The notes: generated by a model from the sequence alone, not told the origin. Shown: positions 56-39,392, numbered from the stretch's first letter. The stretch is DNA of 40,218 nt from Candidatus Moraniibacteriota bacterium (GCA_023133275.1 JAGLWU010000010.1:1-40218), one strand, 5' to 3'. Made by a program: numbers and translations.

Positions 56-2269
56 ATGCCTAAAAAAATTCTAAAAAAAACTTTCGGTTACAACAAATTC
101 CGACCGCTCCAAAAAGAAATAATACAAAACGTCTTGAACAAAAAAGATACAGTCGTATTAATGCCAACTGGAGGAGGAAAATCACTTTGCTATCAAATTC
201 CTGCAATTCATTTGCAAGGATTAACTATTGTAGTTTCACCATTAATTTCCTTAATGAAAGATCAAGTCGATGCTCTTCGTCAAAATGGAGTTGAAGCCGC
301 TTTTTGGAATTCCACACTTTCACTTGACCAACAAAATAAATTACAAGAAAAAATACATAATAAAGAATTAAACATTCTATACATTGCACCAGAAAGATTT
401 GGAGCAGGCGGATTTTTACAATTTTTACAAAACCTCAAAGACGACATTTCACTTTTTGCTATTGATGAGGCACATTGTATTTCGGCGTGGGGACACGATT
501 TTCGTCCAGATTATCGCAACTTGCAAATTCTTAAAAACGATTTTCCAAAAATTCCCATTATTGCTTTGACTGCAACAGCAACGCCGAAAGTTTTACAAGA
601 TATAATTTCAAACTTAAATTTAAGTAAAGACTTTAAAGTTTTTCAAGGATCTTTTGATCGGAAAAATTTGTTTTATGAAGTAAAACGAAAGCAAAAATCT
701 TTTGATCAAATTTGTTATTTTTTAAACAAACGGAAAAAACAGTCGGGAATTATTTATTGTTTTTCACGAAAAAAAGTCGATGACATGGCTTCTAAATTGA
801 AACATAAAGGTTTTTCAGTTTTGCCGTATCATGCAGGTTTAACTCCACAAGTTAGATCAAAAAATCAAGATAAATTTATTAAAGATGAAGTGCAAATTAT
901 TGTGGCGACGATTGCTTTTGGGATGGGGATTGATAAGCCAGATGTTCGCTTTGTCATTCATGACAGTTTACCAAAAAATATTGAAAGTTATTATCAGGAG
1001 ACTGGGCGAGCGGGACGTGATGGTGATCCAGCACATTGTCTTTTGTTTTTTTCTTATGGCGATAAACGAAACATTGAATTTTTCTTCAATGAAATTTCAA
1101 ATGATTTAGAACAAAAAAATGCGGAGGAAAAGTTGCAAAAAATGATTGATTTTTGTGAACAAAAAAGATGTCGGCGACAAATATTGTTAAATTATTTTGA
1201 TGAAGATTTTTTAATTTCTCCAGATAGAAGTGAAGAGAATGCAAAAAAATGTTGTGATTTTTGTGCAAATCCTCCAGAGACTTTTGATGCGACAGAAATT
1301 TCTTTTAAAATATTTTCGGCGATTGCTCGGACTGATCAGCGATTTGGAATGACGACGATTGTTGATATTTTGAAAGGCAGTAAAAATAAAAAAATGACTG
1401 GGCGTGGTTTTGAGAATTTATCAGTTTTTGGAATTGTCGATGATTTTTCAAAAGATGCGATGAGTGAAATTATTCGTCAATTGGTTGAACAGGGTTTTTT
1501 GCGAATTACAAAAGATGAATTTCCTGTTTTGAAATTGATGCAACAAGCAGCTGAAACTATTTCGAAAAGGAAAATGATTAAACTTTTTGAAGTTAAGCGA
1601 ACCGTTTCAGATTCAAGAACAGATGCGCAAGAAGATTTTGAATTTGATGAGGAATTATTTGAAGATTTGCGAGTATTACGAATGAAAATTGCTCAGGAGA
1701 AAAATCTTCCTCCTTATGTTATTTTTCATGATAAGGCTTTGCGTCAGATTTCGGCGATTTTACCGACTTCGACAGATGATTTGAAAAATATTTCAGGAAT
1801 TGGTCAGCGAAAAATTAATGAGTATGGTGATGATGTTTTGGAGATTGTTCGAAATTTTTGTGAAAGGAAAAAAGTTAATGTCGGTGATCATAAAAATAAT
1901 ATTGATCTTGAAAAAATTAATAAAGTTGAAGTTAAGATTTCTCCGCCGAATGGTCGTTCGTTTGAAACGTTAAATTTTATTCAGGATGGTAAGTCCTTGG
2001 AAGAAATTGCAGAAATTTTTGCGGTTAAAGTTGGGACAATCTGTTCTCATTTAGAGCGTTTGATTTTTGCGGGGGAAATTGAGGATATTGATGATTTTGT
2101 GGATGAAAAGACTCAAGAAATTATTGCGGATGCGTTTGATGATAATTTTGAGCAGGGACTTTCTTCAATTAAAGAAGGGTTGGGGGATGATTTTAGTTAT
2201 GATGAGATTAGATTGGTGAGGGTGATTGGGTTGAGGAATGAAAATAAAAAAGTTATAATTAAGATGTAA
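56..2269 (+). CDS. recQ: ATP-dependent DNA helicase RecQ (helicase core, RQC, HRDC, C-terminal HTH)
   Basis: MPTGGGKSLCYQ, DEAHCISAWGHDFRPDY, ATIAFGMGIDKPDVR, YYQETGRAGRDG, Zn-binding CRR...CCDFC, HRDC-like PPYVIFHD. Confidence 0.97.
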   Translation: MPKKILKKTFGYNKFRPLQKEIIQNVLNKKDTVVLMPTGGGKSLCYQIPAIHLQGLTIVVSPLISLMKDQVDALRQNGVEAAFWNSTLSLDQQNKLQEKIHNKELNILYIAPERFGAGGFLQFLQNLKDDISLFAIDEAHCISAWGHDFRPDYRNLQILKNDFPKIPIIALTATATPKVLQDIISNLNLSKDFKVFQGSFDRKNLFYEVKRKQKSFDQICYFLNKRKKQSGIIYCFSRKKVDDMASKLKHKGFSVLPYHAGLTPQVRSKNQDKFIKDEVQIIVATIAFGMGIDKPDVRFVIHDSLPKNIESYYQETGRAGRDGDPAHCLLFFSYGDKRNIEFFFNEISNDLEQKNAEEKLQKMIDFCEQKRCRRQILLNYFDEDFLISPDRSEENAKKCCDFCANPPETFDATEISFKIFSAIARTDQRFGMTTIVDILKGSKNKKMTGRGFENLSVFGIVDDFSKDAMSEIIRQLVEQGFLRITKDEFPVLKLMQQAAETISKRKMIKLFEVKRTVSDSRTDAQEDFEFDEELFEDLRVLRMKIAQEKNLPPYVIFHDKALRQISAILPTSTDDLKNISGIGQRKINEYGDDVLEIVRNFCERKKVNVGDHKNNIDLEKINKVEVKISPPNGRSFETLNFIQDGKSLEEIAEIFAVKVGTICSHLERLIFAGEIEDIDDFVDEKTQEIIADAFDDNFEQGLSSIKEGLGDDFSYDEIRLVRVIGLRNENKKVIIKM
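2231..2259 (+). promoter_or_regulatory. Putative sigma70 promoter inside the last codons of recQ
   Basis: TTGAGG (2231-2236), 17-bp spacer, TATAAT (2254-2259), 30 bp before the SGNH gene start. Confidence 0.5.
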
Positions 2270-2289
2270 GTTTTTTAAAATTAAAATCT

Positions 2290-2895
2290 ATGAGTAAAAG
2301 AGTTTGTATTCTTGGAGATAGTATCACACAAGGTTATAACGATTTTGAAAAAGGTGGTTGGGCAGATCGATTAAAAATTTATTTTAACAAAGAGAATTCT
2401 GATCATTCATTTTTCAATTTGGGAGTTTCTGGTGATAACACAGAAGATTTATTGAAGAGATTTAAAGTGGAAGCGGAAGCAAGAAATCCTGAGGTTTTTA
2501 TTGTTGCAATTGGAATAAATGATTCTCAATATATAGAAACAAAGAGTAATCCTAGAATTGATATAGAAAATTTTAAAAATAATTTGAAAACAATTAAAGA
2601 GATCGCGGATAATTTTTCTAAAAACATAGTTTTTATTGGGTTAACTAAAGTTAATGAATCAAAGGTGATGCCTATACCTTGGAGTATTACTAAGTATTAC
2701 GATAATGAAAATGTTCAATTGTATGATCAAGTGATTAAAGATTTTTGTGAGGAAAATAACATTTATTTTATAGAAATGTTTGATTTATTAGAAGAAGAGA
2801 ATTTGTCTGATGGTTTGCATCCAGATTCTGAAGGACATAAAAAAATGTTTGAAAAAATAAAAGATTTTTTAGTTGAAAATAAAATTATTAAATAA
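2290..2895 (+). CDS. SGNH/GDSL hydrolase
   Basis: Block I GDSIT, block II NLGVSG, block III GIND, block V DGLHP. Confidence 0.9.
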   Translation: MSKRVCILGDSITQGYNDFEKGGWADRLKIYFNKENSDHSFFNLGVSGDNTEDLLKRFKVEAEARNPEVFIVAIGINDSQYIETKSNPRIDIENFKNNLKTIKEIADNFSKNIVFIGLTKVNESKVMPIPWSITKYYDNENVQLYDQVIKDFCEENNIYFIEMFDLLEEENLSDGLHPDSEGHKKMFEKIKDFLVENKIIK

Positions 2896-2904
2896 TTTAA
2901 ACCT

Positions 2905-4344: not shown

Positions 4345-6759
4345 ATGAAATTTTCATATAACTGGCTCAAGGAAATAAGCGGAACTAAAAAAACAGCTCA
4401 AGAAATAGCAGATTTATTTCTAACACATAGCTTTGAAGTTGAAGAAATTATCGATTTAGGAAAAAATTTAGAAAATGTAGTTGTTGGTGAAGTTTTAAGT
4501 GTAGAAAAACATTCTGATGCAGATAAATTAAATGTAGCTAAAGTGAATGTTGGCAATGAAAAATTGCAGATTGTTTGTGGTGCATCAAATTTAGAAGTTG
4601 GACAAAAAGTTCCTGTGGCATTGATTGGAGCGAAATTACCAATGCCAGAAAATAAAGAAACTATTAAATTTTTTGAAATTAAAAAGGCTAAATTGCGAGG
4701 AATTGAGTCGAGTGGGATGATTTGTGCGGAAGATGAATTAGAGTTGGGAGAAAATCACGATGGAATTATGGTTTTAGCTGAAAATGCGGAAGTTGGTCAG
4801 TCTCTCGCAGAATATTTACAGTTGAATGATTTTGTTTTTGACATTGATATTTTACCAAATCGGGGACATGATTGTTTAAGTTATAATGGAATTGCACGGG
4901 AAATTGTTACTTTGGATCAAAATATTGATTTAAAAGATTGGCAGGAAAAAAATGTTGAGAATGATATTTTTTCTGATAAAAAAGGTGATAGTTTGAATAT
5001 TTCTATTGATACGGAAAATTGTAATCGCTATATTGGTACAAAGATTAGTGGTGTGAAAATTGGTGAGGCGCCAGAGTGGATGAAAGTAAGATTAAAAGCG
5101 TCAGGAATGAATTCTATTAATAATATTGTTGATATTACTAATTATGTGATGTTGGAAACTGGTCAGCCGTTGCATGCTTTTGATACAAATAAAGTTGAAA
5201 AAATTTCTGTTCGTCAGGCAAAAAATAAGGAAAAAATAATGTTATTAGATGATGATGAAATTGAATTGATTGAAGATGATATTGTAATTACTGATGGAAA
5301 AAATCCGATTGCATTGGCGGGTGTGATGGGTGGTAAAGATAGTGGAATTGCAGATGAGACGACAGATATTATTTTGGAAAGTGCTAATTTTAATTCCAGT
5401 TCAATTCGTTTTACACAACGGCGGTATAATTTGCAAACAGATGCAGCTTATCGTTTTGAGCGAGATATTGATCCTAATTTTACTGAGCAGGCGACAGTGC
5501 GAGCGATTGAGTTAATTCAAGAATTATGTGGTGGAAAAGTTGAAATTGTTAAAGATAATTATAATAAAAAAATTAAGCCGTGGACAGTTCAGCTTTCGGG
5601 TGAATACGTGAGAAAACTTTTGGGAACCGATATTTCTAGCGAAAAAATTGTGAATATTTTAGAGCGGTTGGGAATTGGTACAGATGGAAAAGCAGGTGAG
5701 GAAAAAATTTCTTGCATTATTCCAACTCGACGAAGGGATTTGCGAGGTCAGGAAGATTTGATTGAAGAAATTGGACGAGTTTATGGTTACGACAAAATTA
5801 AACCAATTCCAATTGTTGGAAATGTTGAATTGCCATATCGAAATGAACAGAGATTTTTTGAGCGAGCTTTGAAAGACATTTGTGTGGGAAGTGGTTTTAG
5901 TGAAATTAAAGGCTATTCTTTTTACGGAAAAGATCAAGCGGAGGCAATTGGTTTAGGTGAGAAAAAACATTTAGCTCTTTTGAATCCATTTAATGTGGAA
6001 CAAGATTTTTTACGACGAACTTTGGCGGTTCATTTGCTTTCTGCGGACAAGAAAAATTTGAGTTATTTTGATCAAGTGAATATTTTTGAAATTGGTAGGA
6101 TTTATAATCCAACTGAAAATTCTCTTCCTGATGAAAAATTAGTTTTTGGTGCAAGTGTGGCGAGTAAAAATAAAAAGGGTGAACAATTTTTTGAACTGAA
6201 AGGTTTGCTGGAAGTTTTATTTGAACGAGTTGGTTTGAATGATTTTTATTTCGATGATTCTTTAGATGAGACTGAACAATATTTAATTCCGTCTTTGCAT
6301 CCATCTCGACAAGCGGTAATTAAGATTGCGGACGGAAAGGTTTTAGGTTGGATTGGTGAAATGAGTCGAAATTCTCATAAGCACTTTGGCTTGAAAAAAG
6401 TTAAAGTATCAGTTTGTGAGATTGACATTGATAATTTGCTAGCGGAGACAGAGAAAGAGCGATTTTTTGAACCGTTGGCGAAGTTTCCTTTTGTGAATCG
6501 TGATTTGTCGATGATTGTTGGCGAAGAGGTCCGAGTTGGTGATGTTGAACGGGTGATTTATATGGCTGGTGGTGATTTGGTGAAAGATGTTGATTTGTTC
6601 GATCTTTATGTGAATGCTGAAAGCAGTGAGCGTTCAATGGCTTTTCGGATTACATTTGGAAATGTTGAGAGGACTTTGAAATCTGAGGAAGTTGATGAGA
6701 GGATTATTAAAATTATTGAGAGTGTTGAGGAGAAATTGGGAGTTGAGGTGAGGAAATAA
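4345..6759 (+). CDS. pheT: Phenylalanine--tRNA ligase beta subunit
   Basis: MKFSYNWLKE start, QIVCGASN, PNRGHDCLS, GQPLHAFD, DLIEEIGRVYGY, ferredoxin-fold anticodon domain RDLS...RSMAFRI. Confidence 0.97.
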   Translation: MKFSYNWLKEISGTKKTAQEIADLFLTHSFEVEEIIDLGKNLENVVVGEVLSVEKHSDADKLNVAKVNVGNEKLQIVCGASNLEVGQKVPVALIGAKLPMPENKETIKFFEIKKAKLRGIESSGMICAEDELELGENHDGIMVLAENAEVGQSLAEYLQLNDFVFDIDILPNRGHDCLSYNGIAREIVTLDQNIDLKDWQEKNVENDIFSDKKGDSLNISIDTENCNRYIGTKISGVKIGEAPEWMKVRLKASGMNSINNIVDITNYVMLETGQPLHAFDTNKVEKISVRQAKNKEKIMLLDDDEIELIEDDIVITDGKNPIALAGVMGGKDSGIADETTDIILESANFNSSSIRFTQRRYNLQTDAAYRFERDIDPNFTEQATVRAIELIQELCGGKVEIVKDNYNKKIKPWTVQLSGEYVRKLLGTDISSEKIVNILERLGIGTDGKAGEEKISCIIPTRRRDLRGQEDLIEEIGRVYGYDKIKPIPIVGNVELPYRNEQRFFERALKDICVGSGFSEIKGYSFYGKDQAEAIGLGEKKHLALLNPFNVEQDFLRRTLAVHLLSADKKNLSYFDQVNIFEIGRIYNPTENSLPDEKLVFGASVASKNKKGEQFFELKGLLEVLFERVGLNDFYFDDSLDETEQYLIPSLHPSRQAVIKIADGKVLGWIGEMSRNSHKHFGLKKVKVSVCEIDIDNLLAETEKERFFEPLAKFPFVNRDLSMIVGEEVRVGDVERVIYMAGGDLVKDVDLFDLYVNAESSERSMAFRITFGNVERTLKSEEVDERIIKIIESVEEKLGVEVRK

Positions 6760-6783: not shown

Positions 6784-7773
6784 ATGAATAATCTAAAATT
6801 TATTGATTTTTGTGCAGGTATTGGAGGAGGGAGGCTTGCGTTTGAGAATCTAGGACTTGAATGTCTTGGTTTTTCTGAAATTGATAAAAATGCTGAAAAA
6901 ACATATAAATTATTTTATGGAGAAAACGAAAAGAATTATGGAGATTTAACAAAAATAAATACAGATGAATTACTAGATTTTGATGTAATGGTTGGAGGTT
7001 TTCCTTGTCAGACATTTTCTGTAATTGGGCAAAGAAAAGGAATGAAAGATGAAAGAGGTGAAATAATTTTTCATCTTATAAATATAATGAAGAAAAAAAA
7101 TGTTAAATTTTTTCTCTTAGAAAATGTAAAAGGTCTTGTAAATCATGATAAAGGAAGATCTTTAAAAATTATTTTAGAAGCTCTTAATGAAGCTGGTTAT
7201 CATGTAGATTGGAAGGTTTTAAGTAGTATCAATTATGGAGTTCCACAAATGAGAGAAAGAATTTATTTTATGGGAATTAGAAAAGATTTATTAAATGATA
7301 ATATAAAGTTTTCTTTTCCAAAAAATACTACACAAACAGCAAATGTTGAAGATTTTTTAATTGATGATAGTGATCTTACTTTTAATGAAAAACAACAAGC
7401 CTATAAAACTTTTCTAAAATATCTCAATAATAAATACAACCAAAACAAACATTTAATAGAAAAATTATTAGAAAGTGAATATCTTGTTTTAGATACAAGA
7501 CAATCAGATTTGAGATTATATTACAATAGAGTTCCAACTCTTAGACTTGGAAGACATGGAATTTTGTATGTAAAAAATGGAAAATTCAGAAAATTATCTG
7601 GCTATGAATCCTTACTGTTACAAGGATTTCCGAAAAAACTAGCAAAAAAAGCAAAAGAAAATATTGCAGAAGCTCATATTTTGAGACAGGCAGGAAATGC
7701 AATGACTGTAAACACGGTACAAGCAATAGCTGAAAAAATGCTAGATTTTGCAAAAAATTTAAAAATTAACTAA
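6784..7773 (+). CDS. C5-cytosine DNA methyltransferase, probably GCGC-specific; now orphan
   Basis: FCAGIGG, GFPCQ, ENVKGL, QMRER, QAGNA; TRD segment LDTRQSDLRLY..PTLR..RHG resembles GCGC methyltransferases (recalled); followed by a HinP1I-like stump. Confidence 0.9.
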   Translation: MNNLKFIDFCAGIGGGRLAFENLGLECLGFSEIDKNAEKTYKLFYGENEKNYGDLTKINTDELLDFDVMVGGFPCQTFSVIGQRKGMKDERGEIIFHLINIMKKKNVKFFLLENVKGLVNHDKGRSLKIILEALNEAGYHVDWKVLSSINYGVPQMRERIYFMGIRKDLLNDNIKFSFPKNTTQTANVEDFLIDDSDLTFNEKQQAYKTFLKYLNNKYNQNKHLIEKLLESEYLVLDTRQSDLRLYYNRVPTLRLGRHGILYVKNGKFRKLSGYESLLLQGFPKKLAKKAKENIAEAHILRQAGNAMTVNTVQAIAEKMLDFAKNLKIN

Positions 7774-7781
7774 AAGATTTT

Positions 7782-7859
7782 ATGAATGATAAACAAGCCA
7801 AAGGTTCAAAAACTGCAAAAGACGGATTTAAAAATGAGTATATTCTATGTTATAATTAA
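7782..7859 (+). pseudogene. Truncated N-terminus of a HinP1I-family restriction endonuclease
   Basis: Translates MNDKQAKGSKTAKDGFKNE then YILCYN*; GSKTAKDGFKNE matches the start of R.HinP1I as I recall it; absent from the ORF track. Confidence 0.7.
7848..7856 (+). promoter_or_regulatory. Extended -10 promoter of the second R-M cassette
   Basis: TGTTATAAT immediately after the endonuclease breakpoint. Confidence 0.55.
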
Positions 7860-7887
7860 ATTATCATAATAAATTTAAAAAATATAG

Positions 7888-8826
7888 ATGAAATTTATAG
7901 ATTTATTCGCTGGAATAGGTGGAATAAAAACAGGTTTTGAAAAAGTTGGTTTTGATTGTGTTTTTTCTAATGATTTTGATAAAAATGCAAAAATAACATT
8001 TGATTTGAATTTTTCTAATCCAATGGTTCTTGGTGATATTCAAGAAATTAAACTTGATGATATTCCTAATTTTGATGTTTTATGCGGAGGTTTTCCTTGT
8101 CAGCCTTTTTCGATTGCGGGATATAGACAAGGGTTCAAAGATGAAGATGGAAGAGGAAATTTATTTTTTGATATAGTTAGAATTTTAAAAGAAAAAAAGC
8201 CAAAAGCCTTTTTATTGGAAAATGTTAAAAATTTAAAAACACATGATAAAGGACATACAGTAAAAGTTATTTTTGAACAGCTTGAGAGTTTAGGCTATAA
8301 AGTTGATAAAGATGTTTTGAATACTATAAAATATGGAAATCTTCCTCAAAATAGAGAAAGAATTTACATTGTTGGTTTTTTAGAACAGGAAGCTTTTGAA
8401 AAATTTGAATTTCCAAAGAAGATAAAACTTACAAAAACTATCCATGATTGTTTGGAAAATAAAAAGATTGATGATAAATATTATTATAATGACAAACCTC
8501 TTTATGAAAAATTGAAGGATGATGTTATAAAAAAAGATACAGTATATCAATGGAGGAGAAAATATGTTAGAGAAAATAAAAGTGGCGTTTGTCCTACTTT
8601 AACAGCAAATATGGGAATGGGTGGTCATAATGTACCAATTATTTTGGATTCAAAAGGAATTAGAAAGCTAACACCAAGAGAATGTGCTAATTTTCAAGGG
8701 TTTCCGAAAAGTTATAAATTACCAGATATAGCGGATTCTCATTTATATAAACAGTTTGGTAATTCTGTTTCGATACCTGTAATAAAAAGAGTTGCAAAAA
8801 ATATTTATAAAGCTTTAAATAAATAG
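7888..8826 (+). CDS. C5-cytosine DNA methyltransferase, GCNGC-type TRD
   Basis: LFAGIGG, GFPCQPFS, ENVKNL, QNRER, QFGNSV; TRD YQWRRKYVRENKSGVCPTLTANMG resembles M.Bsp6I-like enzymes (recalled). Confidence 0.92.
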   Translation: MKFIDLFAGIGGIKTGFEKVGFDCVFSNDFDKNAKITFDLNFSNPMVLGDIQEIKLDDIPNFDVLCGGFPCQPFSIAGYRQGFKDEDGRGNLFFDIVRILKEKKPKAFLLENVKNLKTHDKGHTVKVIFEQLESLGYKVDKDVLNTIKYGNLPQNRERIYIVGFLEQEAFEKFEFPKKIKLTKTIHDCLENKKIDDKYYYNDKPLYEKLKDDVIKKDTVYQWRRKYVRENKSGVCPTLTANMGMGGHNVPIILDSKGIRKLTPRECANFQGFPKSYKLPDIADSHLYKQFGNSVSIPVIKRVAKNIYKALNK

Positions 8827-8828
8827 TT

Positions 8829-16300: not shown

Positions 16301-16304
16301 TTTT

Positions 16305-29514: not shown

Positions 29515-29546
29515 ATGTTTAAATATTATTTGGATAACATATTTAT

Positions 29547-30200: not shown

Positions 30201-30238
30201 ATATTTGTAAAATTATCAGTTGCATAATCAAAAAAATT

Positions 30239-30265
30239 AGACTATCCTTAAAGATAGTCTTTTTT
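30239..30265 (+). terminator. Hairpin/terminator overlapping a putative dxs promoter
   Basis: AGACTATC-cttaaa-GATAGTCT plus T-tract; TTGCAT (30220) 17 bp TATCCT (30243) overlaps it. Confidence 0.5.
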
Positions 30266-30308
30266 AAATTATTCAAAAAAGACAAAAATTAACAATTTAT
30301 ACAAAAAC

Positions 30309-32150
30309 ATGAAATACCCAATATTAGACAAAGTAAATTACCCAAAAGATTTAAGAAAATTACCAGTCGAAGAATTAGAAATTTTAAGTGCAGAAATTCG
30401 TCAATTCCTAATCCAATGCGTTTCCAAAACAGGAGGACACTTCGGTTCAAATTTAGGAGTAGTCGAATTAACAGTCGCTTTACATTACGTTTTCAATACA
30501 CCAAAAGATTTACTCGTCTGGGACGTTGGACATCAAACTTACCCACATAAAATTTTAACAGGACGAAAAAATCAACTTTGCACCATTCGACAAAAAGACG
30601 GGCTAGCACCTTTTCCAAAAAGAACAGAAAGTGAATACGACACTTTAGGCGTTGGACATTCCAGTACCTCAATCAGTGCAGCGGTGGGAATGAGTATTGC
30701 AAATAAAGATAAAAAAAATCCTCCGCAGACAGTGGTAGTGATTGGCGATGGAGCATTGGGTGGAGGAATGGTTTTTGAGGCGATGAATCACGCAGGCGAT
30801 GTCGGTACGGATATGTTGATTATTCTCAATGATAATAAAATGTCAATTTCACCAAATGTTGGAGCGATCGACAAATATTTAACACGACTTATTTCTTCAC
30901 AAAAATATTTAAAAATTCGTCGAAAAGGTAAAAAAATTCTTTCTCAATCTTCCTCTAGAATTCACAAACTTGTTCAGCGGGCGGAAAAGTACGCCAAAGG
31001 AATGATTACTCCCGGAACTTTATTTGAAGAATTAGGCTTTGGGTATTACGGTCCGATTGATGGTCATGATACAAAAATGTTAGTCAAAGTTTTAAGTAAT
31101 CTTAAAAAAGTGAAAGGTCCAAAATTATTGCACATAGTTACTCAAAAAGGTAAAGGTTGTGAATTTGCAGAAAGCGATGATTTTTCTCTTCATGCCGTTG
31201 CTCCATTTGATCCAAAAACAGGTAAATCTTTGAAAAAAAGTAGTTCAAAAACTTTTACAGATGTGTTCTCTCAGTGGATTATTAAAACAGCAGAAAAAGA
31301 TGAAAAACTTCATGCAATTACGCCAGCGATGTGTTCAGGATCTGGTTTAACAAATTTTCAAAAAGAATTTCCTGAGCGGTTTCATGATGTAGGAATTGCG
31401 GAACAACATGCAGTAACTTTTTCAGCAGGATTGGCTTGTCAGAGCAAAAAACCAGTAGTTGCGATTTATTCGTCTTTTTTGCAACGAGCGTATGATCAGT
31501 TAATTCATGATGTGGCGATTCAAAATTTGAATGTTCTTTTTGCAGTGGATCGAGCGGGGTTGGTTGGTCCAGATGGGGCGACACATGCGGGAAGTTTTGA
31601 TATGGCGTTTGCACGAAATATTCCTAATTTAACAATTCTTGCTCCAACGACAGCAGAAGAATGTGAAGCGATGTTGGATTGGGGCTATGAGTATGAAGGT
31701 CCAGTTATCGTTCGTTATCCTCGTGATAAAGTAATTTCTAGTAAAAAAGATAATTTTCAAGAAATTAAATTAGGGAAATCTGAAATTATCAGAAAAGGTA
31801 AAAAAATAGTTATTTTAACGTTCGGTACAGTTTTGAATAATTGTGTATCTTTGGCGGAAAAGTTAAATGCGACTTTGGTGAATATGCGTTTTGTGAAGCC
31901 GTTGGATAAAGAAATGATTCGAGGATTGGCTAAAAATCATAAAACTTTTTTGACGGTTGAAGAGGGAGCTGTTTTGGGCGGGGTGGGAAGTGCGGTTGGT
32001 GAATTTGTAGCACAGGAAAATTTGAATGTTACGGTAAAAAATATTGGTTTGCCAGATAAATTTTTACAACACGGAAGTCGGGAGGAATTATTGGTTGAAG
32101 CGGGATTGGATGAAAGGAGTATTAAAAATGTTTTGAAAAGTTTAGTTTGA
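30309..32150 (+). CDS. dxs: 1-deoxy-D-xylulose-5-phosphate synthase
   Basis: GGHFGSNLGVVELT, WDVGHQTYPHKILTGR, GHSSTSISA, GDGALGGGM..EAMN, IAEQHA, DRAGLVGPDGATH. Confidence 0.97.
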   Translation: MKYPILDKVNYPKDLRKLPVEELEILSAEIRQFLIQCVSKTGGHFGSNLGVVELTVALHYVFNTPKDLLVWDVGHQTYPHKILTGRKNQLCTIRQKDGLAPFPKRTESEYDTLGVGHSSTSISAAVGMSIANKDKKNPPQTVVVIGDGALGGGMVFEAMNHAGDVGTDMLIILNDNKMSISPNVGAIDKYLTRLISSQKYLKIRRKGKKILSQSSSRIHKLVQRAEKYAKGMITPGTLFEELGFGYYGPIDGHDTKMLVKVLSNLKKVKGPKLLHIVTQKGKGCEFAESDDFSLHAVAPFDPKTGKSLKKSSSKTFTDVFSQWIIKTAEKDEKLHAITPAMCSGSGLTNFQKEFPERFHDVGIAEQHAVTFSAGLACQSKKPVVAIYSSFLQRAYDQLIHDVAIQNLNVLFAVDRAGLVGPDGATHAGSFDMAFARNIPNLTILAPTTAEECEAMLDWGYEYEGPVIVRYPRDKVISSKKDNFQEIKLGKSEIIRKGKKIVILTFGTVLNNCVSLAEKLNATLVNMRFVKPLDKEMIRGLAKNHKTFLTVEEGAVLGGVGSAVGEFVAQENLNVTVKNIGLPDKFLQHGSREELLVEAGLDERSIKNVLKSLV

Positions 32151-32157
32151 TTTTTTG

Positions 32158-32166
32158 TGTTATAAT
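32158..32166 (+). promoter_or_regulatory. Extended -10 promoter element
   Basis: TGTTATAAT 7 bp after the dxs stop. Confidence 0.55.
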
Positions 32167-32191
32167 TAACGTAAAATAGTAAAATAAGTAT

Positions 32192-32665
32192 ATGGAAAGT
32201 AATAATTTGTTAACTGATAAAGTCCAAAATAATAAAAAAGAAATTAAAAATTTTCAAAAGATTATAATTATATTTGGAATAATTAGTTTATTAATTGTCG
32301 TAAATTTAGTATACACTAATTCTTCTATTTCAATATTGAGTAGAATAGAAAGTGAATCAAATATAGATTTTCCTGATAGTTCGAATATAATTGATTTTGA
32401 TAAAAAACCACCCATAGATCCTATAATAATAGCAAAAATATCAATATCAGAATCATCAGTTGAAAAAATGAAAGAAGATATAGAATCAAAAACTGAATAT
32501 AGCGGTTCTGTTAGTGGGGCATTATCAGAGTCGATGAGTTGGTGGACGCCTAATCAAGTTATTGTTGAAAAAACATATTGGTCAAGTGAACACATACTTG
32601 TACACGTTATTTTATCAAAACAAAATAATGAATATTTTGTTTATATAGAATGCTCTGTTTTTTAG
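32192..32665 (+). CDS. Hypothetical membrane-anchored protein
   Basis: Single N-terminal TM segment; own promoter. Confidence 0.6.
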   Translation: MESNNLLTDKVQNNKKEIKNFQKIIIIFGIISLLIVVNLVYTNSSISILSRIESESNIDFPDSSNIIDFDKKPPIDPIIIAKISISESSVEKMKEDIESKTEYSGSVSGALSESMSWWTPNQVIVEKTYWSSEHILVHVILSKQNNEYFVYIECSVF

Positions 32666-32687
32666 AATGAAACCTTTTTAAAATTAT

Positions 32688-33224
32688 ATGATTATAAAAA
32701 ATTTAATTCAAGTGGGAAATCCTTTATTAAAACAAAAAAGCAAAATTGTTAAAAATATAAATTCAAAAGAGACACAAAAAATAATTAAAAATTTAATTGA
32801 TTCATTAAATTATCATGAATTAGTAGGATTAGCTTCTTCTCAAATTGGAGAAAAATCAAGAATATTCGTTACAAAAATTGACAAAACACCAAACAGAAAT
32901 CCTGATGAAATTGACAAGCTGAGAATTTATATTAATCCAAAAATAATTTGGAGTTCTAAAAAGGAAATTATTATTTATGAAGGTTGTGGCAGTGTCGCTT
33001 ATGCGAAATTTTTTGCACCAGTTAAAAGACCGGAAAAAATAATCATTGAAGCGACTGATGAAAAAGGTGATAAATTTAATTTGAAAGTTGAGGGACTTTT
33101 AAGTCGAGTGATTCAACATGAATACGATCATCTTGAAGGAATAGAGTTTACAGAAAAAATTACTGATATGAAAAAAATAATGAGTTCAGGAGAGTATAGA
33201 AAAATGATTTTTGCAAAAAGTTAA
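32688..33224 (+). CDS. def: Peptide deformylase
   Basis: GLASSQIG, EGCGS, QHEYDHLEG. Confidence 0.9.
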   Translation: MIIKNLIQVGNPLLKQKSKIVKNINSKETQKIIKNLIDSLNYHELVGLASSQIGEKSRIFVTKIDKTPNRNPDEIDKLRIYINPKIIWSSKKEIIIYEGCGSVAYAKFFAPVKRPEKIIIEATDEKGDKFNLKVEGLLSRVIQHEYDHLEGIEFTEKITDMKKIMSSGEYRKMIFAKS

Positions 33225-33275
33225 TTTAAAATTATTTAAATTTAATTTTAAATCCAATTTTAATTCAATGTATCA

Positions 33276-33295
33276 AAAGCCCGTGCGGCGAGCAC
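33276..33295 (+). repeat. Dispersed 20-bp motif, copy 4
   Basis: AAAGCCCGTGCGGCGAGCAC preceded by ATGTATCA. Confidence 0.95.
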
Positions 33296-33320
33296 AGAAA
33301 AAATCTAAAATTACAAAAAT

Positions 33321-33349
33321 TTGACAGTTGAAAATTATTCATATAAAAT
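33321..33349 (+). promoter_or_regulatory. sigma70 promoter of the atp operon
   Basis: TTGACA, 17-bp spacer, TAAAAT. Confidence 0.8.
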
Positions 33350-33367
33350 ATTAATGTAAAGTAAAAT

Positions 33368-33640
33368 ATGAAAAAAGATAAAAATAATCGAGAAGAAAGT
33401 TTGAGAGATATTGTGAAAGGTTCCGCTATTTATACGGGCGTTTCTATTTTAACACCAATGATTTTCTTTGGCGGAATCGGTTTGTTTCTCGATAAACATT
33501 TTCAAAAAAAACCATTGTTTATACTTATCTTTATCGGAATAGCATTTATCATTACCAATATTTTACTTTTCAAGAAAACGAGGATGCTTACAAAAAAAAT
33601 GGAGCAATACTCAGATGAAATTAAAAAAGAAAGTTTGTAA
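33368..33640 (+). CDS. AtpZ/AtpI-family ATP synthase accessory membrane protein
   Basis: 2 TM with G..LDKHF...P motif; first gene of the atp operon. Confidence 0.8.
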   Translation: MKKDKNNREESLRDIVKGSAIYTGVSILTPMIFFGGIGLFLDKHFQKKPLFILIFIGIAFIITNILLFKKTRMLTKKMEQYSDEIKKESL

Positions 33641-33691
33641 AAGAAATTTGAGTGCCTCGTGCATTCAGTTTTTATTTTTATTTAAATTCAA

Positions 33692-34510
33692 ATGGAACTA
33701 AACATATCATTAGCACCAGAAATACTTTTTAAAATAGGATCATTTCCAGTTTCCAATTCTTTTTTTTGGATGGTTGTGGTATCTATTTCGTTGATGATTT
33801 TAATTTTAACAATCCGTTATAAATTCAAACAAGTTCCAGGCAGGACTCAAGCAGCTTTTGAAATTTTAATTGAGGGCGGACTCGATTTTGTACAGTCTAT
33901 CATAGAAGACAAGGATATAGCAAAAAAAGTTTTTCCTTTAGTTTTCACACTTTTTCTTTTTATCATGCTAGCAAATTTGATAACTTTCATTCCTGGTTCA
34001 GCAGTTGTTCTTGAGAGCGGTGAGGGAAAAGTTTCTTTATTTCGAGCAGTGATGTCAGATTATGGTATAGTGATAGTAATGACTTTAGTAGCGGTGATTA
34101 CAGCTCAGATTGTGGCAATTATTTCTTTTGGACCATTTGGTTATCTCGGAAAGTATTTTAATTTTAGTGGGATGAAAGAATTTTTTTCAGAACTTTTTCG
34201 TGGAAAATTGAAATTTGGATTGTTGGCACAAGGTTTTTTAGATATATTTTTAGGATTGATGGATATTGTTGGAGAGATTGCTAAGATTGTTTCACTGTCA
34301 TTTCGTTTGTTTGGTAATATTTTTGCAGGTGAAGTTTTGGGAATGGTGATGTTATTTTTGATGCCATGGTTTTTGCCATTGCCATTTCAGTTTTTGAGTC
34401 TTTTGACAGCAGTGGTGCAAGCATTTGTTTTTGCGGTATTGACTTTGATGTTTATTTCATTAGCATTAAAGATAGATGATGAAGATTTAAATGAAAAAGC
34501 GACGGTATAA
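33692..34510 (+). CDS. atpB: F0 ATP synthase subunit a
   Basis: VPGRTQ, SLSFRLFGNIFAGE, VQAFVFAVLT. Confidence 0.96.
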   Translation: MELNISLAPEILFKIGSFPVSNSFFWMVVVSISLMILILTIRYKFKQVPGRTQAAFEILIEGGLDFVQSIIEDKDIAKKVFPLVFTLFLFIMLANLITFIPGSAVVLESGEGKVSLFRAVMSDYGIVIVMTLVAVITAQIVAIISFGPFGYLGKYFNFSGMKEFFSELFRGKLKFGLLAQGFLDIFLGLMDIVGEIAKIVSLSFRLFGNIFAGEVLGMVMLFLMPWFLPLPFQFLSLLTAVVQAFVFAVLTLMFISLALKIDDEDLNEKATV

Positions 34511-34547
34511 TATTATTTGAAGTTTAATAAATTTAATTAATAATTAA

Positions 34548-34790
<243 letters not shown>

Positions 34791-34800
34791 TAATTTTAGT

Positions 34801-34832
34801 ATGTCTTGTATTTCAATTTAAATATGAGACAT
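34801..34832 (+). other. Intercistronic hairpin after atpE
   Basis: ATGTCTTGTATTT...AAATATGAGACAT. Confidence 0.55.
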
Positions 34833-34954
34833 CTTGAGTTATTAATTTTTTTGGAAAATTTATATTTTTTAAGATTTCTGTTTCTGTGGAAATGCTAAAT
34901 AAATATATTTTTCAAAAAAACGTTTAAAAATATTAAAAAGTTTTTGCTAAAACT

Positions 34955-35446
34955 ATGGAAATTATTAAAGCTTTAGGAATAGATAATTATTGGGTGCTTA
35001 TTGCACAATTTGTTAATTTGGCAGTATTGCTTTTTGTTTTGTATAAATTTGCTTATGGTCCGATGATGAAAATGTTGGACGAGCGAAGTGCTAAAATTGC
35101 GGAAGGAATTAAGGATGCGGAAAAAGCTAATAAAAAGTTAGAGGAAACTGAATCGAGAGAAAAAGATGTTTTAAATAAAGCTAAAAAAGAGGCAAAAAAA
35201 ATTATCGCTGCAGCTGAAGAAATTGCTGAAAAAAATAAGGCAGAAATTTTAGAAAATTCTAAGATGGAGGCTGATGAAATTTTCAGAAAAGCGGAAGAAA
35301 AGATTGAAGAAGAAAAGAATAAATTGAGAGAAGAGTTAAAAAAAGAAACTATCGAGTTAGTGATGATGGCGACGGAAAAAGTTTTAAAAGAAAAAATTGA
35401 TAGTGATAAAGATAAAGAAATTATTGAAAAAGTGGTGAAAAATTAG
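34955..35446 (+). CDS. atpF: F0 ATP synthase subunit b
   Basis: N-terminal TM ending YKFAYGP..LDER, then long coiled coil; operon position. Confidence 0.93.
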   Translation: MEIIKALGIDNYWVLIAQFVNLAVLLFVLYKFAYGPMMKMLDERSAKIAEGIKDAEKANKKLEETESREKDVLNKAKKEAKKIIAAAEEIAEKNKAEILENSKMEADEIFRKAEEKIEEEKNKLREELKKETIELVMMATEKVLKEKIDSDKDKEIIEKVVKN

Positions 35447-35521
35447 CTTGCATGGAAGATTGATTTGTAAAATATTTTGTGAGTTATTTAATCAAATTTA
35501 GAATTACGAAAAAATTGAAAT

Positions 35522-35923
35522 ATGAAAATCAAATCTAAACAATATGCTCAAGCTTTGTTCGAGTTAACAAAAGAAAAAAATAAATCTGATGTTGATGCGT
35601 TGGTTTTGAAGTTTGTTGAGAATCTGAAAAGAAATAGTGAGTTTAAAAAAATTGATGAAATAATTAAAAGTTTTATTCAAATTTATAATAGGGAAAATAA
35701 TATTGTAGAAGCCGAAATTATGAGTGCGAAAGAATTGAATGTAGATCAATTGCAGAGTGTGAAGGATTTTATTGGCAAAAAATATGAATCTGAAGAAGTT
35801 ATTTTGAAAAATGAAGTCGATGAGAGTATTTTGGGAGGTGTTTCTGTCAAAGTTGGTGAAGAGGTTACTGATTTTAGTATTGGTGGACAGTTGAAGCAAT
35901 TGAAAAATTGTTTGGTGAAGTAG
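35522..35923 (+). CDS. atpH: F1 ATP synthase subunit delta (short form)
   Basis: YAQALF, DESILGG..VKVG..D.SI; operon position. Confidence 0.9.
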   Translation: MKIKSKQYAQALFELTKEKNKSDVDALVLKFVENLKRNSEFKKIDEIIKSFIQIYNRENNIVEAEIMSAKELNVDQLQSVKDFIGKKYESEEVILKNEVDESILGGVSVKVGEEVTDFSIGGQLKQLKNCLVK

Positions 35924-35992
35924 TTATTTGTAAGTTTATATTAAATTGCAAATAGAAATTGTAAATTAAAAAAGTTTTTTGAGAAATAAAAA

Positions 35993-36031
35993 AAGACCCT
36001 TTGAACATTGTTCTGGCAGTAAACGGGTCTT
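35993..36031 (-). terminator. Terminator of the antisense gene
   Basis: AAGACCC...GGGTCTT hairpin with an A-tract on its left (T-tract on the minus strand). Confidence 0.6.
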
Positions 36032-36045
36032 GTGCCAATTGGAAG

Positions 36046-36255
36046 TTAAAGATTAGGATCAATTACAGAAAATTTATCTATTGCTTCAACATCTATTCCC
36101 TTTCTTTGTAATTCATTAAAAAAGTTGTTCATGGAAAAAGTGTGTATTGCCTCAATCGTTACTTTTTCTCCAGAGAAAAGAATTATTTTCAGAGTCAATT
36201 GGTTTGTACCTAATTTTTTCTTTATTTCTTCCCAAATTTGTTTATCAGTTCTCAT
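36046..36255 (-). CDS. Small hypothetical protein (69 aa) inserted antisense between atpH and atpA
   Basis: Start moved to ATG 36255 (MRTDKQIWEEIK...) with AGGAGA Shine-Dalgarno; the ORF-track ATG at 36321 falls inside the promoter. Confidence 0.6.
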   Translation of the reverse strand: MRTDKQIWEEIKKKLGTNQLTLKIILFSGEKVTIEAIHTFSMNNFFNELQRKGIDVEAIDKFSVIDPNL

Positions 36256-36311
36256 TTGAAAAATTCTCCTTTTATATGTTGTTGATTCGTGGATTTTTCT
36301 ACGAATATATA

Positions 36312-36340
36312 AATTTAGCATAATGATAATAATAAGTCAA
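36312..36340 (-). promoter_or_regulatory. Promoter of the antisense gene
   Basis: Minus strand TTGACT, 17-bp spacer ending in TGC, TAAATT. Confidence 0.6.
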
Positions 36341-36415
36341 GAGGTAAAAAATTGAAGAAAATTTTAAAATAAATTAACATTTAAATTATCAAAACAATTA
36401 AATAAATTATAAATT

Positions 36416-37909
36416 ATGAAAAATTACATAGTCGATCAATTAAAAAAACAAATTGAGAATTTCGAAACTCAATCTCAAACCGAAAAAGTCGGAAAAGTTT
36501 TAGAAGTAGGGGACGGAGTAGTTCGAGTTGAAGGACTTTCAGATGTAATGAGTCAAGAAATGCTAGAATTTTCCGATGGAAGTTTAGGTGTGGCGTTAAA
36601 TTTAGAGGAAGATCAAGTTGGTGCAATTGTTTTAGGAGATTATAAAGGAATTAAAGAAAGTGATGAGGTAAAATCAACAGGAAAAATTCTTTCCGTACCA
36701 GTTTCTGAAAAAATGATTGGACGAGTGTTAAATCCGCTTGGACAAACAATCGATGGAAAAGAAGAAATTAAAACTGATGAATTTTATCCAATTGAAAAAA
36801 TTGCACCAGGGGTTATTTCTCGAAAATCAGTTCATGAGCCAGTGCAAACTGGAATTAAGGCAATTGATGCGATGATTCCTGTAGGAAGAGGACAACGAGA
36901 ATTAATTATCGGAGATCGACAAACTGGAAAAACAGCTGTGGCAATTGATGCAATCATCAATCAGAAAGGACAGGATATGGTTTGTATTTATGTAGCAATT
37001 GGTCAAAAGGAATCAAAAATTGCTAGAATTGTGGCGGAATTAGAAAAAAATGGAGCAATGGAGTATACAACTGTTATTGTAGCGGGAGCTTCGGATCCTT
37101 CATCTTTTTCATTTATTTCTCCATATTCAGGTTGTGCTCTAGGTGAATATTTTATGGATAAAGGATTGGATGTGATGATTGTTTATGATGATTTGTCAAA
37201 ACATGCGTGGGCTTATCGACAAATTTCTTTAATTTTACGTCGTCCACCGGGGCGAGAGGCTTACCCTGGAGATGTATTCTATTTACATTCTCGTCTTTTA
37301 GAAAGAAGTGCTAAATTGAACGAAGATTTTGGTGGAGGTTCAATGACAGCTTTTCCGATAATCGAAACACAAGCAGGAGATGTTTCTGCTTACATTCCAA
37401 CTAATGTTATTTCTATTACTGATGGGCAAATTTATTTAGAGGCAGATTTGTTTTACAAAGGCATTCGACCAGCGATCAATCCAGGGTTAAGTGTGTCCCG
37501 TGTAGGAGGCTCTGCTCAAACTAAAGCAATGAAAAAAGTAGCTGGAAAATTAAGATTAGATTTGGCACAGTTTAAAGAATTGGAAGCGTTTGCTCAATTT
37601 GGATCTGATTTAGATGAAAAAACTAGAGCACAAATTGAAAGAGGAAGGAGAACAGTTGAAATTCTAAAGCAAGATCAGTATTCGCCACTTTCAATGGAAA
37701 ATCAAGTTGCAATTATTTATGCTTTGATTAATGGATTTTTAGATGATATTGAAGTAAATAAAATTATTGAATGGGAAAAATCTTTTCACAAATTTATGCA
37801 CTCAAGCAAGCGAGAGGTTTTGGAAAATATTGCTGATGAGAAAGAATTAACGGATGAAATTGTTGAAAAATTAGAAAGTGCGATTAAAGATTTCAAGGAA
37901 ACGTTTTAA
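36416..37909 (+). CDS. atpA: F1 ATP synthase subunit alpha
   Basis: [51 protein letters not shown]. Confidence 0.98.
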
Positions 37910-37929
37910 TTAATTTAATATTAGGTTCT

Positions 37930-38382
37930 ATGTTAAAGTTTGATATAAATTTTGATTTCAAAAAACGTTTTTTGTATAATCTTTTTAGTATTACTTGGAG
38001 TCGATGGTTTTTGGTTTGTATTTTTGTGATATTTTTTGCTTATATTTTAAATAGGGAGCTAGGAATGTTTTTGAATAGCTTATTTAAATATGTTATACCA
38101 TTTCTTTTTATTGTTTCTCCTTTATATTTGCACTTTTTATCAAAAAATAGAAATGTTAAGTATTTTTTTGATGAGAATAAATTTGGTATTGAATTCGAAA
38201 ATAAAAAGTTAGAAGGAAATAAACAAAGTATTGATAAAATGATTTTTAAACCCAATTATTTCTACTTGTATATAAGATATTCCAAAAATAAGAAAATAAT
38301 ATTCATTGGGACGAAAGATGAGATATTTAGTATGAAAGAGGGATTATCAAAAACTGATTATAAAAAATATTTTATAAATTAA
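37930..38382 (+). CDS. Hypothetical 2-TM membrane protein (YcxB/PH-like tail) between atpA and atpG
   Basis: Two hydrophobic helices followed by a beta-rich tail; very AT-rich. Confidence 0.6.
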   Translation: MLKFDINFDFKKRFLYNLFSITWSRWFLVCIFVIFFAYILNRELGMFLNSLFKYVIPFLFIVSPLYLHFLSKNRNVKYFFDENKFGIEFENKKLEGNKQSIDKMIFKPNYFYLYIRYSKNKKIIFIGTKDEIFSMKEGLSKTDYKKYFIN

Positions 38383-38435
38383 TTTTTTTATAAAAAACTC
38401 TTAAATCATAATTCTAAATTTAAAATTATTAAACT

Positions 38436-39392
38436 ATGTCAAATAGTAAAGAAATACAACGGCGAATAAAATCAATCAATAATACTGGAAAAATAACTCG
38501 AGCGATGGAGATGGTTTCAGCTGCAAAAATGCGACGAGCGACGGAAAGTGTTTTGAAAATTCGTCCTTATGCTAAAAGTGCTTGGAATATTTTGACTAAC
38601 TTAGCTCGTTCTTTTGATAAACACGAATCAAAGCTTTTAGAGGTGCGAGAGGTAGAAAAGGTTTTGGTTATTATCATTACTTCTAATCGAGGTTTGTGTG
38701 GATCTTTTAATTCTCAAATTATGAGAAGGATTAGAAATGAAATTGATAATCCAAAAAGTTTGAAAATAAATAGAATTGGAGCGAAAAAAATTGAGCCAAA
38801 AGATTCAAATAAAGAATTGAAAGTCGATTTTGTAACTATTGGAAGGAAAGGTGAAAATTTAGTTGCTAAATTAGGCAAAGAAATAATCGCTTCTTTTCCT
38901 GATTTGACTTATTTACCAGGAATTGAGGCAGTGCGACCGTTGTCGAATTTGGTTATCGAAGAATATGAAAAAGCTAATTATGATAAAGTGGTTATTGCGT
39001 ATACGGATTATATTTCAGTGGTAAAACAGGAGCCGAAAATTCGTCAAATTTTACCTATTTCAAAAATTGATTTGGAAAAGCAAATTATTGAGATGGATAA
39101 TTCAATTGAAGAGCGTGAATTAAAAGAGCCGAAATTTGAGTATAAAGTTGAGCCGAGTCCAAATGAGGTTTTGTCAAATATTTTTCCACGGTTGATTGAG
39201 ATGCAAATTTACCATTCTATTTTGGAGTCGAATGCGTCTAAGGAATCGGCTAGGATGATAGCGATGAGGAATGCGACGGATGCGGCGAAGGAGATGGGTG
39301 AAGATTTAACATTGGCGTATAATCAGATTAGGCAGATGAAGATTACACAAGAAATAGCTGAAATTTCGGCGGGGAGTACAGCTGTGGAATAA
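38436..39392 (+). CDS. atpG: F1 ATP synthase subunit gamma
   Basis: KITRAMEMVSAAK, SNRGLCGSFN, ARMIAMRNATD, RQMKITQEIAEI. Confidence 0.98.
   Translation: MSNSKEIQRRIKSINNTGKITRAMEMVSAAKMRRATESVLKIRPYAKSAWNILTNLARSFDKHESKLLEVREVEKVLVIIITSNRGLCGSFNSQIMRRIRNEIDNPKSLKINRIGAKKIEPKDSNKELKVDFVTIGRKGENLVAKLGKEIIASFPDLTYLPGIEAVRPLSNLVIEEYEKANYDKVVIAYTDYISVVKQEPKIRQILPISKIDLEKQIIEMDNSIEERELKEPKFEYKVEPSPNEVLSNIFPRLIEMQIYHSILESNASKESARMIAMRNATDAAKEMGEDLTLAYNQIRQMKITQEIAEISAGSTAVE

Follow-up and report, generated by a model that had tools for sequence, protein, structure and literature searches.

Horizontal gene transfer (HGT) hotspots and replacement flexible genomic islands carry variable gene content at fixed places between conserved genes, and homologous recombination in the flanking core genes is the exchange route inferred for them in the abstracts of the two studies that describe them (Oliveira et al. 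2017, PMC5635113; Lopez-Perez et al. 2014, PMC4033161). Small variable segments are also already known (PMC2884548). The stretch of DNA analysed here, referred to as the window, shows a comparable arrangement. It comprises 40,218 nucleotides (positions 1-40218 of contig C2) of a metagenome-assembled genome (MAG) of Candidatus Moraniibacteriota, within the candidate phyla radiation (CPR)/Patescibacteria. Its conserved genes are in addition polarized in base composition, with C and A enriched toward 5′ ends and G and T toward 3′ ends, and the polarity is strongest at gene ends that adjoin variable slots.

The source genome, coded G000, comprises 1.03 Mb in 74 contigs with 30.4% GC, and the sequencing runs that contain the window are cold-seep metagenomes. 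All but two of the open reading frames (ORFs) in the window lie on the plus strand. The comparison genome, G001, is that of a sister species of the same genus, is 88% complete, and was used for 922 kb of its ~1.5 Mb. ORFs were taken from a simple longest-ORF caller at a threshold of at least 80 amino acids (aa), which gives 914 ORFs in G000, some of them possibly with misplaced start codons.

Composition gradient and its dependence on neighbouring genes

The initial annotation of the window reported that core genes lose C and gain G at their 3′ ends and show the reverse at their 5′ ends. The five hand counts behind this statement are exact on recount. Near 3′ ends there are 29 G and no C at 2171-2240, 24 G and no C at 6691-6759, and 28 G and no C at 18121-18190; at 5′ ends there are 12 C and 5 G at 61-120, and 33 C and 9 G at 9981-10080. 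Stretches of 66 nt that lack C entirely occur in 4 of 273 conserved-gene tails, compared with 3 of 4637 internal windows of that size.

The gradient is genome-wide. Across the 914 ORFs, the third-position GC skew (GC3 skew) starts at 0.03 over the initial 60 nt, has risen to ~0.55 at 900-1200 nt, and stands at 0.59 over the final 60 nt, and the third-position AT skew (AT3 skew) moves from +0.09 to -0.20 between the start and the end of genes. Third-position G+T is higher in the last third than in the first in 82% of 546 genes of 600-2700 nt (t-test p=7e-76), and each length class from 600 to 2700 nt has the gradient. At four-fold sites, A goes from.41 to.28, C from.10 to.055, G from.11 to.19, and T from.38 to.47 between start and end, so that the gradient does not vanish when amino-acid composition is controlled for. 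NNC-to-NNT and NNA-to-NNG shifts are present in all codon families, and codon positions 1 and 2 are shifted too in G000 and G001, though not in relatives. The excess of G and T, carried by the strand whose 3′ end points toward the slot, involves all codon positions and is motif-free. Skew depends both on distance from the start and on distance from the end of a gene. The polarity at gene ends is therefore as initially described, but its reach, put at 100-300 bp, is measured at 400-700 nt.

Replication skew was rejected as a source, because the gradient is present in majority-strand genes (GC3 skew 0.25/0.47/0.62 along the gene), mixed genes (-0.09/0.28/0.51), and minority-strand genes (-0.12/0.08/0.33). 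Replication strand adds only an additive offset of ~0.3-0.4 between majority- and minority-strand genes, smaller than the within-gene swing in GC3 skew of ~-0.3 to +0.8. Intergenic skew within co-oriented runs of G000 is 0.19. Whole-contig GC skew in G000 reaches 0.2-0.4 in either direction, far beyond usual bacterial values.

The strength of the polarity depends on the conservation of the adjoining gene. Neighbours were classed for 391 G000 genes with an orthologue-like match in G001, a “no-hit” neighbour being one with a blastp E above 1e-10 against the other species, and the final tests exclude genes with a G001 orthologue close to either end of a sampled contig. In G000, the median third-position G+T at 5′ ends is.550 beside syntenic and.400 beside no-hit neighbours (n=94/80, p=1.3e-11), and at 3′ ends it is.613 and.725, respectively (n=87/89, p=6.8e-12). 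Expressed as GC3 skew, 5′ ends stand at ~-0.25 beside no-hit and ~+0.3 beside syntenic neighbours, and 3′ ends at ~0.78 and ~0.54. The effect is replicated when G001 is classed against G000 (p=8e-5 for 5′ and 5e-9 for 3′ ends), among majority-strand genes alone (p about 1e-6), and in an ORF-free classing by whether the 600-nt flanks are alignable (p=7.8e-5 and 1.4e-7). It is seen in every gene-length class and every gap class; across the latter, 5′ ends range from +0.30 to +0.47 (syntenic) and from -0.17 to -0.29 (no-hit), and 3′ ends lie at 0.47-0.57 (syntenic) and 0.66-0.85 (no-hit). An early reading based on gap classes alone, in which the skew is reset alike at every junction, was overturned by classing neighbours by conservation. 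The proposed link between skew and junctions with accessory inserts is borne out in both species, and gene ends do not share one gradient irrespective of their neighbours.

The neighbour effect is local, with each gene end tracking its own neighbour. Genes with a no-hit neighbour upstream and a syntenic one downstream have GC3 skews of -0.43/0.14/0.53 in their first, middle, and last 240 nt, and genes with the opposite arrangement have 0.17/0.51/0.78. At 5′ ends, the difference between the no-hit and syntenic classes decays over ~450-540 nt; at 3′ ends, its decay takes more than 700 nt. Insert genes themselves are flat at the ends next to conserved genes (0.26 and 0.33).

One alternative is a polarity coupled to transcription or translation, in which coding-strand G/T would build up along the transcription unit or the ORF, for example through the choice of strand in repair, and variable junctions would stand out solely because the spaces between transcription units tolerate inserts. 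The prevalence of the gradient among genes and its independence of replication strand agree with this account, as do the halting of polarity within 30 nt of ORF boundaries, the lack of a reset at internal AT-rich tracts, and a ribosomal-protein operon in which the first gene alone starts low. A fungal pattern attributed to transcription is similar (PMC3315797). The 23S rRNA of G001 is unbiased, with 14 private changes toward G/T and 17 toward A/C, in a test whose power is low because there are just 34 private changes. Against transcriptional coupling, divergent and convergent pairs are unit ends by definition and still differ by neighbour class (divergent only, p=7e-4; convergent only, p=0.0037). 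By orientation, GC3 skew at 5′ ends is -0.22 (co-oriented) and -0.36 (divergent) beside no-hit neighbours and +0.33 and -0.04 beside syntenic ones, and at 3′ ends the two orientation classes give 0.80 and 0.73 next to no-hit neighbours and 0.54 and 0.44 next to syntenic ones. Syntenic pairs with a gap above 80 nt do not reset to a greater extent than tight ones (0.30 vs 0.34). Tight no-hit pairs reset fully (-0.24). Ends in G001 are also weaker where its slot is empty, as described below. Moreover, if the skew came from the exposure of the non-template strand during transcription, it would be expected to peak at 5′ ends. Coupling to transcription or translation is accordingly considered unlikely as the origin of the pattern.

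Several candidate junction signals were rejected. A hairpin formed across the junction is not favoured between real partners, a 3′ end and the next 5′ end having -22.1 kcal/mol and swapped partners -23.1 kcal/mol (p=0.17, 172 junctions). AT-rich tracts do not act as a reset signal, since 104-392 internal tracts are without a reset. A promoter before each gene is not indicated either: the upstream excess of TAnAAT equals the base-composition expectation, and extended -10 matches are found at non-tight junctions only.

Variable slots in the window and in the sister genome

In total, 123 variable junctions are bracketed by two conserved genes that are also close together in G001. Median slot span is 813 nt in G000 and 834 nt in G001; 26 of the 123 slots are empty in G001, and the other 97 are occupied in both species. 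Most of the G001 genes in matching slots (130/162) have no G000 match, and by sequence comparison the matching slots carry unrelated genes in the two species. An integron-like or site-specific cassette array is not indicated, since an alignment of 7 conserved-end/insert junctions contains no shared boundary motif (mean identity 49%), although integrases were not searched for.

These slots bear on a further alternative, reverse causality, according to which a strong pre-existing polarity of different origin renders junctions fragile or recombinogenic, and genes land and turn over there as a result. At matching junctions, 3′ ends are equally extreme in the two species (0.76 in G001 vs 0.77 in G000) despite the different slot genes, which indicates that the polarity predates the present inserts. 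Where the slot is empty in G001, however, its ends are weaker, with 0.63 vs 0.84 in G000 at 3′ ends and +0.10 vs -0.24 at 5′ ends (n=13 each). Reverse causality also offers no source for the polarity itself, and it is regarded as quite improbable.

The features of the window are as follows, with paired GC3 skews referring to the start and the end of the gene. Those that are conserved genes are recQ, pheT, proS, the P-type ATPase, secA, and dxs, among which recQ and the ATPase are polarized at both ends.

56-2269, plus strand: recQ (TIGR01389, 740.6 bits); GC3 skew -0.44 / 0.92 (240 nt at either end); downstream neighbour no-hit
2290-2895, plus strand: slot gene of 201 aa; no-hit in G001; weak esterase-like NCBIfam matches below cut-off
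4345-6759, plus strand: pheT, with a C-free 3′ tail (TIGR00472, 750.5 bits); GC3 skew -0.09 / 0.71
6784-9953, plus strand: restriction-modification insert; two Dcm-type methyltransferases (TIGR00675, 288.9 and 352.9 bits) and an NgoFVII-like endonuclease (PF20731)
16521-18194, plus strand: proS, 3′ arm toward a variable slot (NF006625, 577.4 bits); GC3 skew 0.58 / 0.94
18195-21235, no single strand: variable slot; 129-aa ORF, alpha/beta hydrolase, ankyrin-repeat protein, and one minus-strand ORF (Pfam)
21236-23905, plus strand: P-type (Ca-type) ATPase (TIGR01522, 563.1 bits, below cut-off; TIGR01494, 299.9 bits, above); GC3 skew -0.40 / 0.91; neighbours both no-hit
23906-26859, plus strand: variable slot; 223-aa ORF, M23 peptidase, and DUF5648 protein (Pfam)
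26860-29514, plus strand: secA (NF009538, 1109.9 bits); GC3 skew 0.00 / 0.85; neighbours both no-hit
29515-30308, plus strand: variable slot; single 217-aa ORF without Pfam family; 6.5 kb of unrelated DNA there in G001
30309-32150, plus strand: dxs, strongest polarity in the window (TIGR00204, 842.7 bits); GC3 skew -0.89 / 0.82; neighbours both no-hit
33368-40217, plus strand: ATP synthase operon; atpB, atpF, atpA, and atpG named by family search

Contig C13 of G001 is colinear with the window for proS, the P-type ATPase, secA, and dxs, and the intervening segments are without a tblastx match. Colinearity at proS extends as far as position 18193. For the slot that follows (18195-21235), tblastx matches nothing in the corresponding 3.3 kb of G001, where a 687-aa protein without a family and a CDP-alcohol phosphatidyltransferase are found instead. 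The slot at 23906-26859 likewise has no tblastx match to the 5.9 kb at its matching place, which contains a protein of at least 1304 aa without a family. Two of the window slots hold different Pfam families in G000 and G001.

The ATP synthase operon combines both kinds of junction. Resets at its syntenic junctions are weak at most, and the genes at 34955-35446 (0.89/0.70) and 35522-35923 (0.70/0.65) show none. Unlike these syntenic neighbours, atpA lies between no-hit ORFs and has a GC3 skew of 0.00 / 0.58. The ORFs inside the operon, at 36046-36321 (minus strand, between atpH and atpA) and 37930-38382 (plus strand, between atpA and atpG), have no G001 match and no family.

The restriction-modification insert at 6784-9953 has weak G001 matches, and the usual gradient of the genome is not consistently present in it. 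In this compact unit, a protein with an NgoFVII-type C-terminal DNA-binding domain comes after the two Dcm-type cytosine methyltransferases. The adjacent 85-aa ORF at 9978-10235 had been labelled a GIY-YIG gene; an NCBIfam search matched no family. This ORF is conserved in G001, has no G at third positions and a GC3 skew of -1.0 in each half, its third positions being nearly all A or C; the composition of its first 100 nt is A42 C33 T16 G9. The profile is reversed in a 1069-aa ORF at 11927-15136, where GC3 skew begins at 0.33 and has dropped to -0.57 by the final 240 nt; this ORF belongs to no NCBIfam family, and its G001 match is weak.

Substitution rates and the origin of the polarity

Synonymous sites are unsaturated between G000 and G001. 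Rates were estimated by gene quintile from 258 orthologue pairs of at least 600 nt, taken from 359 pairs (median amino-acid identity ~81%), under an assumed stationary two-state model in which K is the synonymous relaxation rate. From the first to the last quintile, C>T rises from.95 to 1.49 and A>G from.28 to.45, while T>C falls from.29 to.18 and G>A from 1.18 to.67. Bootstrap intervals for these two quintiles are disjoint. Forward and reverse rates thus shift oppositely by ~1.6-fold, which matches a scaled fixation bias of ~1.

The cause put forward initially was deamination of single-stranded DNA (ssDNA), in which repeated resection or strand invasion leaves 3′ tails and spontaneous conversion of C to U and of A to hypoxanthine writes the G/T excess, as a purely mutational process. 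The geometry and the tie to variable slots fit this explanation, as do a context-free, transition-type shift in all codon families that also touches codon positions 1 and 2 and the finding of endonuclease V in 0 of 31 genomes. The rates do not. Calculated from the observed compositions, deamination alone predicts that K rises ~2.5-fold at C/T and 1.35-fold at A/G sites from 5′ to 3′, whereas the observed ratios are ~1.34 and ~0.77. Added C>T and A>G input also cannot cause the observed fall in T>C and G>A. In 3′ arms by variable slots, K is 1.20 at Y and 1.03 at R sites, below the 1.81 and 1.57 of syntenic ends (bootstrap at A/G sites,.90 to 1.22 vs 1.36 to 1.83), and it is no higher in the arms than in the middles of the same genes. 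These results lend no support to extra damage in the arms, and constraint, gene flow, or fixation bias are possible reasons for their lower K. Because gene flow that homogenises the arms could hide extra input, deamination is weakened only, and it is retained as an unlikely cause. What stands from the initial proposal is the geometry, which matches 3′ tails from resection at the slot; deamination as the writer of the bias is not supported.

Another alternative is selection on mRNA or decoding. It supposes that starts are open and A/C-rich and ends G/U-rich for translation efficiency, processivity, or stability, and it is in line with a rate signature that resembles fixation bias, with the sharp boundaries at ORF ends, and with the Shine-Dalgarno-free initiation of the group. 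No Shine-Dalgarno signal is present upstream of G000 starts or in the 10 relatives sampled; the 25 nt before start codons (e.g., 40-55 and 2275-2289 in the window) contain 5-9% G and form an A-rich leader with T at -1 in 66% of genes. As all relatives lack the signal too and are nevertheless flat, its loss was rejected as a trait of the genus. Predicted folding energy is level after the first 90-nt window (-10.5, -12.0, -11.7, -12.8, and -11.9 kcal/mol), so that an mRNA folding gradient is absent beyond that window. A codon ramp or open start was likewise discarded in view of the reach of 400-700 nt, the flat folding past the first 90 nt, and the matching effect at 3′ ends. The shift is much the same whether or not a codon family has a C34 tRNA, which dismisses tRNA-specific decoding, and highly expressed genes are no more extreme and have no liking for C-ending codons. 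Selection of this kind gives no account of why neighbour conservation matters, and it is thought to be very improbable.

The pattern itself, its tie to variable slots, its locality, and its fixation-bias-like rate signature are the observations that any explanation has to cover. From these, we infer recombination at the arms and, as a separate step, a preference of RecA as the agent. The conserved-gene ends of 400-700 nt that face slots are proposed to work as arms for recombination. Once a slot had undergone a break or an exchange, 5′ resection would uncover precisely the G/T-rich strands as 3′ tails. As RecA filaments have their highest stability on TG-rich and their lowest on CA-rich single strands, tail variants that add G or T would be preferentially fixed, either through selection for repair and exchange or through a conversion-like drive. 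At low RecA, filament stability is highest with TGG repeats and lowest with CCA repeats (PMC3763553), the same G/T versus A/C axis as here, and a recombination-linked fixation bias on the arm strands is proposed for this reason. RecQ, RecJ, and RecA are all encoded in G000.

On balance, it is slightly more likely than not that the polarity is linked to recombination in a broad sense. The best explanation of the whole, a recombination-linked fixation bias on the arms that perhaps operates via RecA preference for TG-rich strands, is tentative and is held at less than even confidence. The RecA preference, taken as the agent, is somewhat doubtful. In its strongest form, a recombinase-preference drive, the liking of RecA for TG would rewrite codons and even amino acids over the terminal 400-700 nt of ~1/3 of conserved genes, and the ends would become ever better arms in a self-reinforcing manner; this is rather unlikely.

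Searches for accompanying sequence signals and enzymes were made within the arms and the two genomes. Among 232 arms, no oriented 5-8-mer has a z above 5 relative to Markov expectation, and the frequencies of 2-3-mers track the change in single bases, so that a motif plays no part. The k-mer tests gave no nuclease, Shine-Dalgarno-like, or Chi-like motif. The matches of G000 and G001 to the AddA family are helicase-like and all sub-threshold; the RecB, RecC, and RecD families were not searched for. Raised substitutions in flanking core genes were not seen between the two genomes, K being lower in the arms.

The polarity is confined to the genus among the lineages sampled, with relatives covered at 20-200 kb each. 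In G001, the GC3 skew goes from 0.13 to 0.56 (446 genes); 11 other genomes of the family and order have flat profiles (359 genes), and 11 loci from other CPR lineages show a faint GC3 trend at most. In counts over 31 genomes, or over 4 for RecA, RecJ, and DprA, the genus is not set apart from its relatives by the presence or absence of RecA, RecJ, RecQ, Rho, UDG, endonuclease V, RNase HI, RNase HII, tmRNA, or DprA. Rho is above cut-off in 1/31, which is neither G000 nor G001. UDG is present in 28/31; RNase HII in 29/31; RNase HI also in 29/31, including G000 and excluding G001 (88% complete); and RecQ in 9/31, flat ones among them. RecA and RecJ were found in 4/4 genomes and DprA in 3/4. tmRNA is above cut-off in 28/31, G000 and G001 among them. 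The tmRNA at G000:C47:1099-1518 was found by Infernal at 112 bits and missed by aragorn, so an aragorn miss is no sign of absence in these lineages. The 23S rRNA genes of the group (e.g., G001:C5:25281-28447) are 2943-3890 nt long, compared with a model of 2925 positions, a spread that suggests insertions of varying size. The 16S gene does not adjoin the 23S gene in four loci scanned.

Several points weigh against recombination-linked fixation bias. No exchange event has been seen, the reads being clonal and two genomes compared: in metagenome reads examined as Logan contigs, contigs from runs X1, X2, X3, and X6 of one study depart from window positions 16401-36400 at only 3 sites over 20 kb, which makes the population look clonal from sample to sample. 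A metagenome scan with the P-type ATPase turned up no closer relatives, as all 70 loci had at most 45% identity in their best segment. RecA, RecJ, and RecQ are also present in flat relatives (e.g., G007), which leaves the restriction of the pattern to one genus unexplained. The comparison at empty slots rests on just 13 junctions per end, and the rate analysis leans on the stationary two-state assumption. The middles of arm-bearing genes are also somewhat slower, so the lower K of the arms may just mean slower-evolving genes. At syntenic junctions there is a weaker gradient all the same (0.16/0.32/0.56, n=22), and no-hit genes themselves carry one, from 0.10 to 0.56. Finally, a process at the DNA level does not obviously predict that polarity breaks off within 30 nt of ORF boundaries.

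If the link to exchange is true, the places at which a genome swaps genes, and the geometry of the swap, could be read from base composition alone, down to a single MAG of an uncultured organism. As the rate analysis favours fixation bias over damage, it becomes testable whether the sequence taste of the recombination machinery can shape coding sequence, like GC-biased gene conversion in eukaryotes. If the drive is true, ultra-small bacteria would have a self-reinforcing architecture of gene exchange, with content turning over through hundreds of small slots. In these genomes, the polarity can also distort conclusions about codon usage, about the origin and terminus of replication, and about selection.

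Comparison with known systems

Like HGT hotspots, the slots described here hold different genes in related genomes (130/162 genes without a match; 97/123 slots occupied in both). Known hotspots account for ~1% of chromosomal regions (PMC5635113), whereas 123 junctions differ here between congeneric genomes of 1-1.5 Mb, mostly by one small gene. The boundaries of the islands described by Lopez-Perez et al. have peaks of synonymous substitution (PMC4033161); here, turnover in the arms is lower. A strand-compositional polarity of the flanks, as seen here, goes unmentioned in the abstracts of both studies (PMC5635113, PMC4033161). Full-text searches, within the set of papers that they covered, returned no description of a strand-compositional gene-end polarity tied to variable neighbours in bacteria or CPR.

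Chi sequences lie in TG-rich islands, and RecA prefers TG (PMC3763553, PMC6393298). The likeness is that the G/T-rich strand here would end 3′ at the break and is the one RecA would coat, and the contrast between TG-stable and CA-unstable filaments falls on the compositional axis found in the arms. Unlike Chi, there is no over-represented oriented oligomer here, and the signal is a base-composition gradient that reshapes codon and amino-acid use.

The skew of fungal genes resembles the present pattern in that coding strands favour C toward the 5′ end and G toward the 3′ end, with four-fold sites and amino-acid usage affected (PMC3315797). The present skew differs in that it halts at ORF ends, has an A/T component, and depends on the conservation of the neighbour. 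Skew from replication and transcription in bacteria similarly gives G over C and T over A on leading and coding strands. That skew is uniform within a gene, whereas the skew here swings from ~-0.3 to +0.8 and is reset at junctions. The swing lies far beyond ordinary replication or transcription skew, occurs in one genus and is absent from its relatives, and tracks the conservation of the neighbouring gene.

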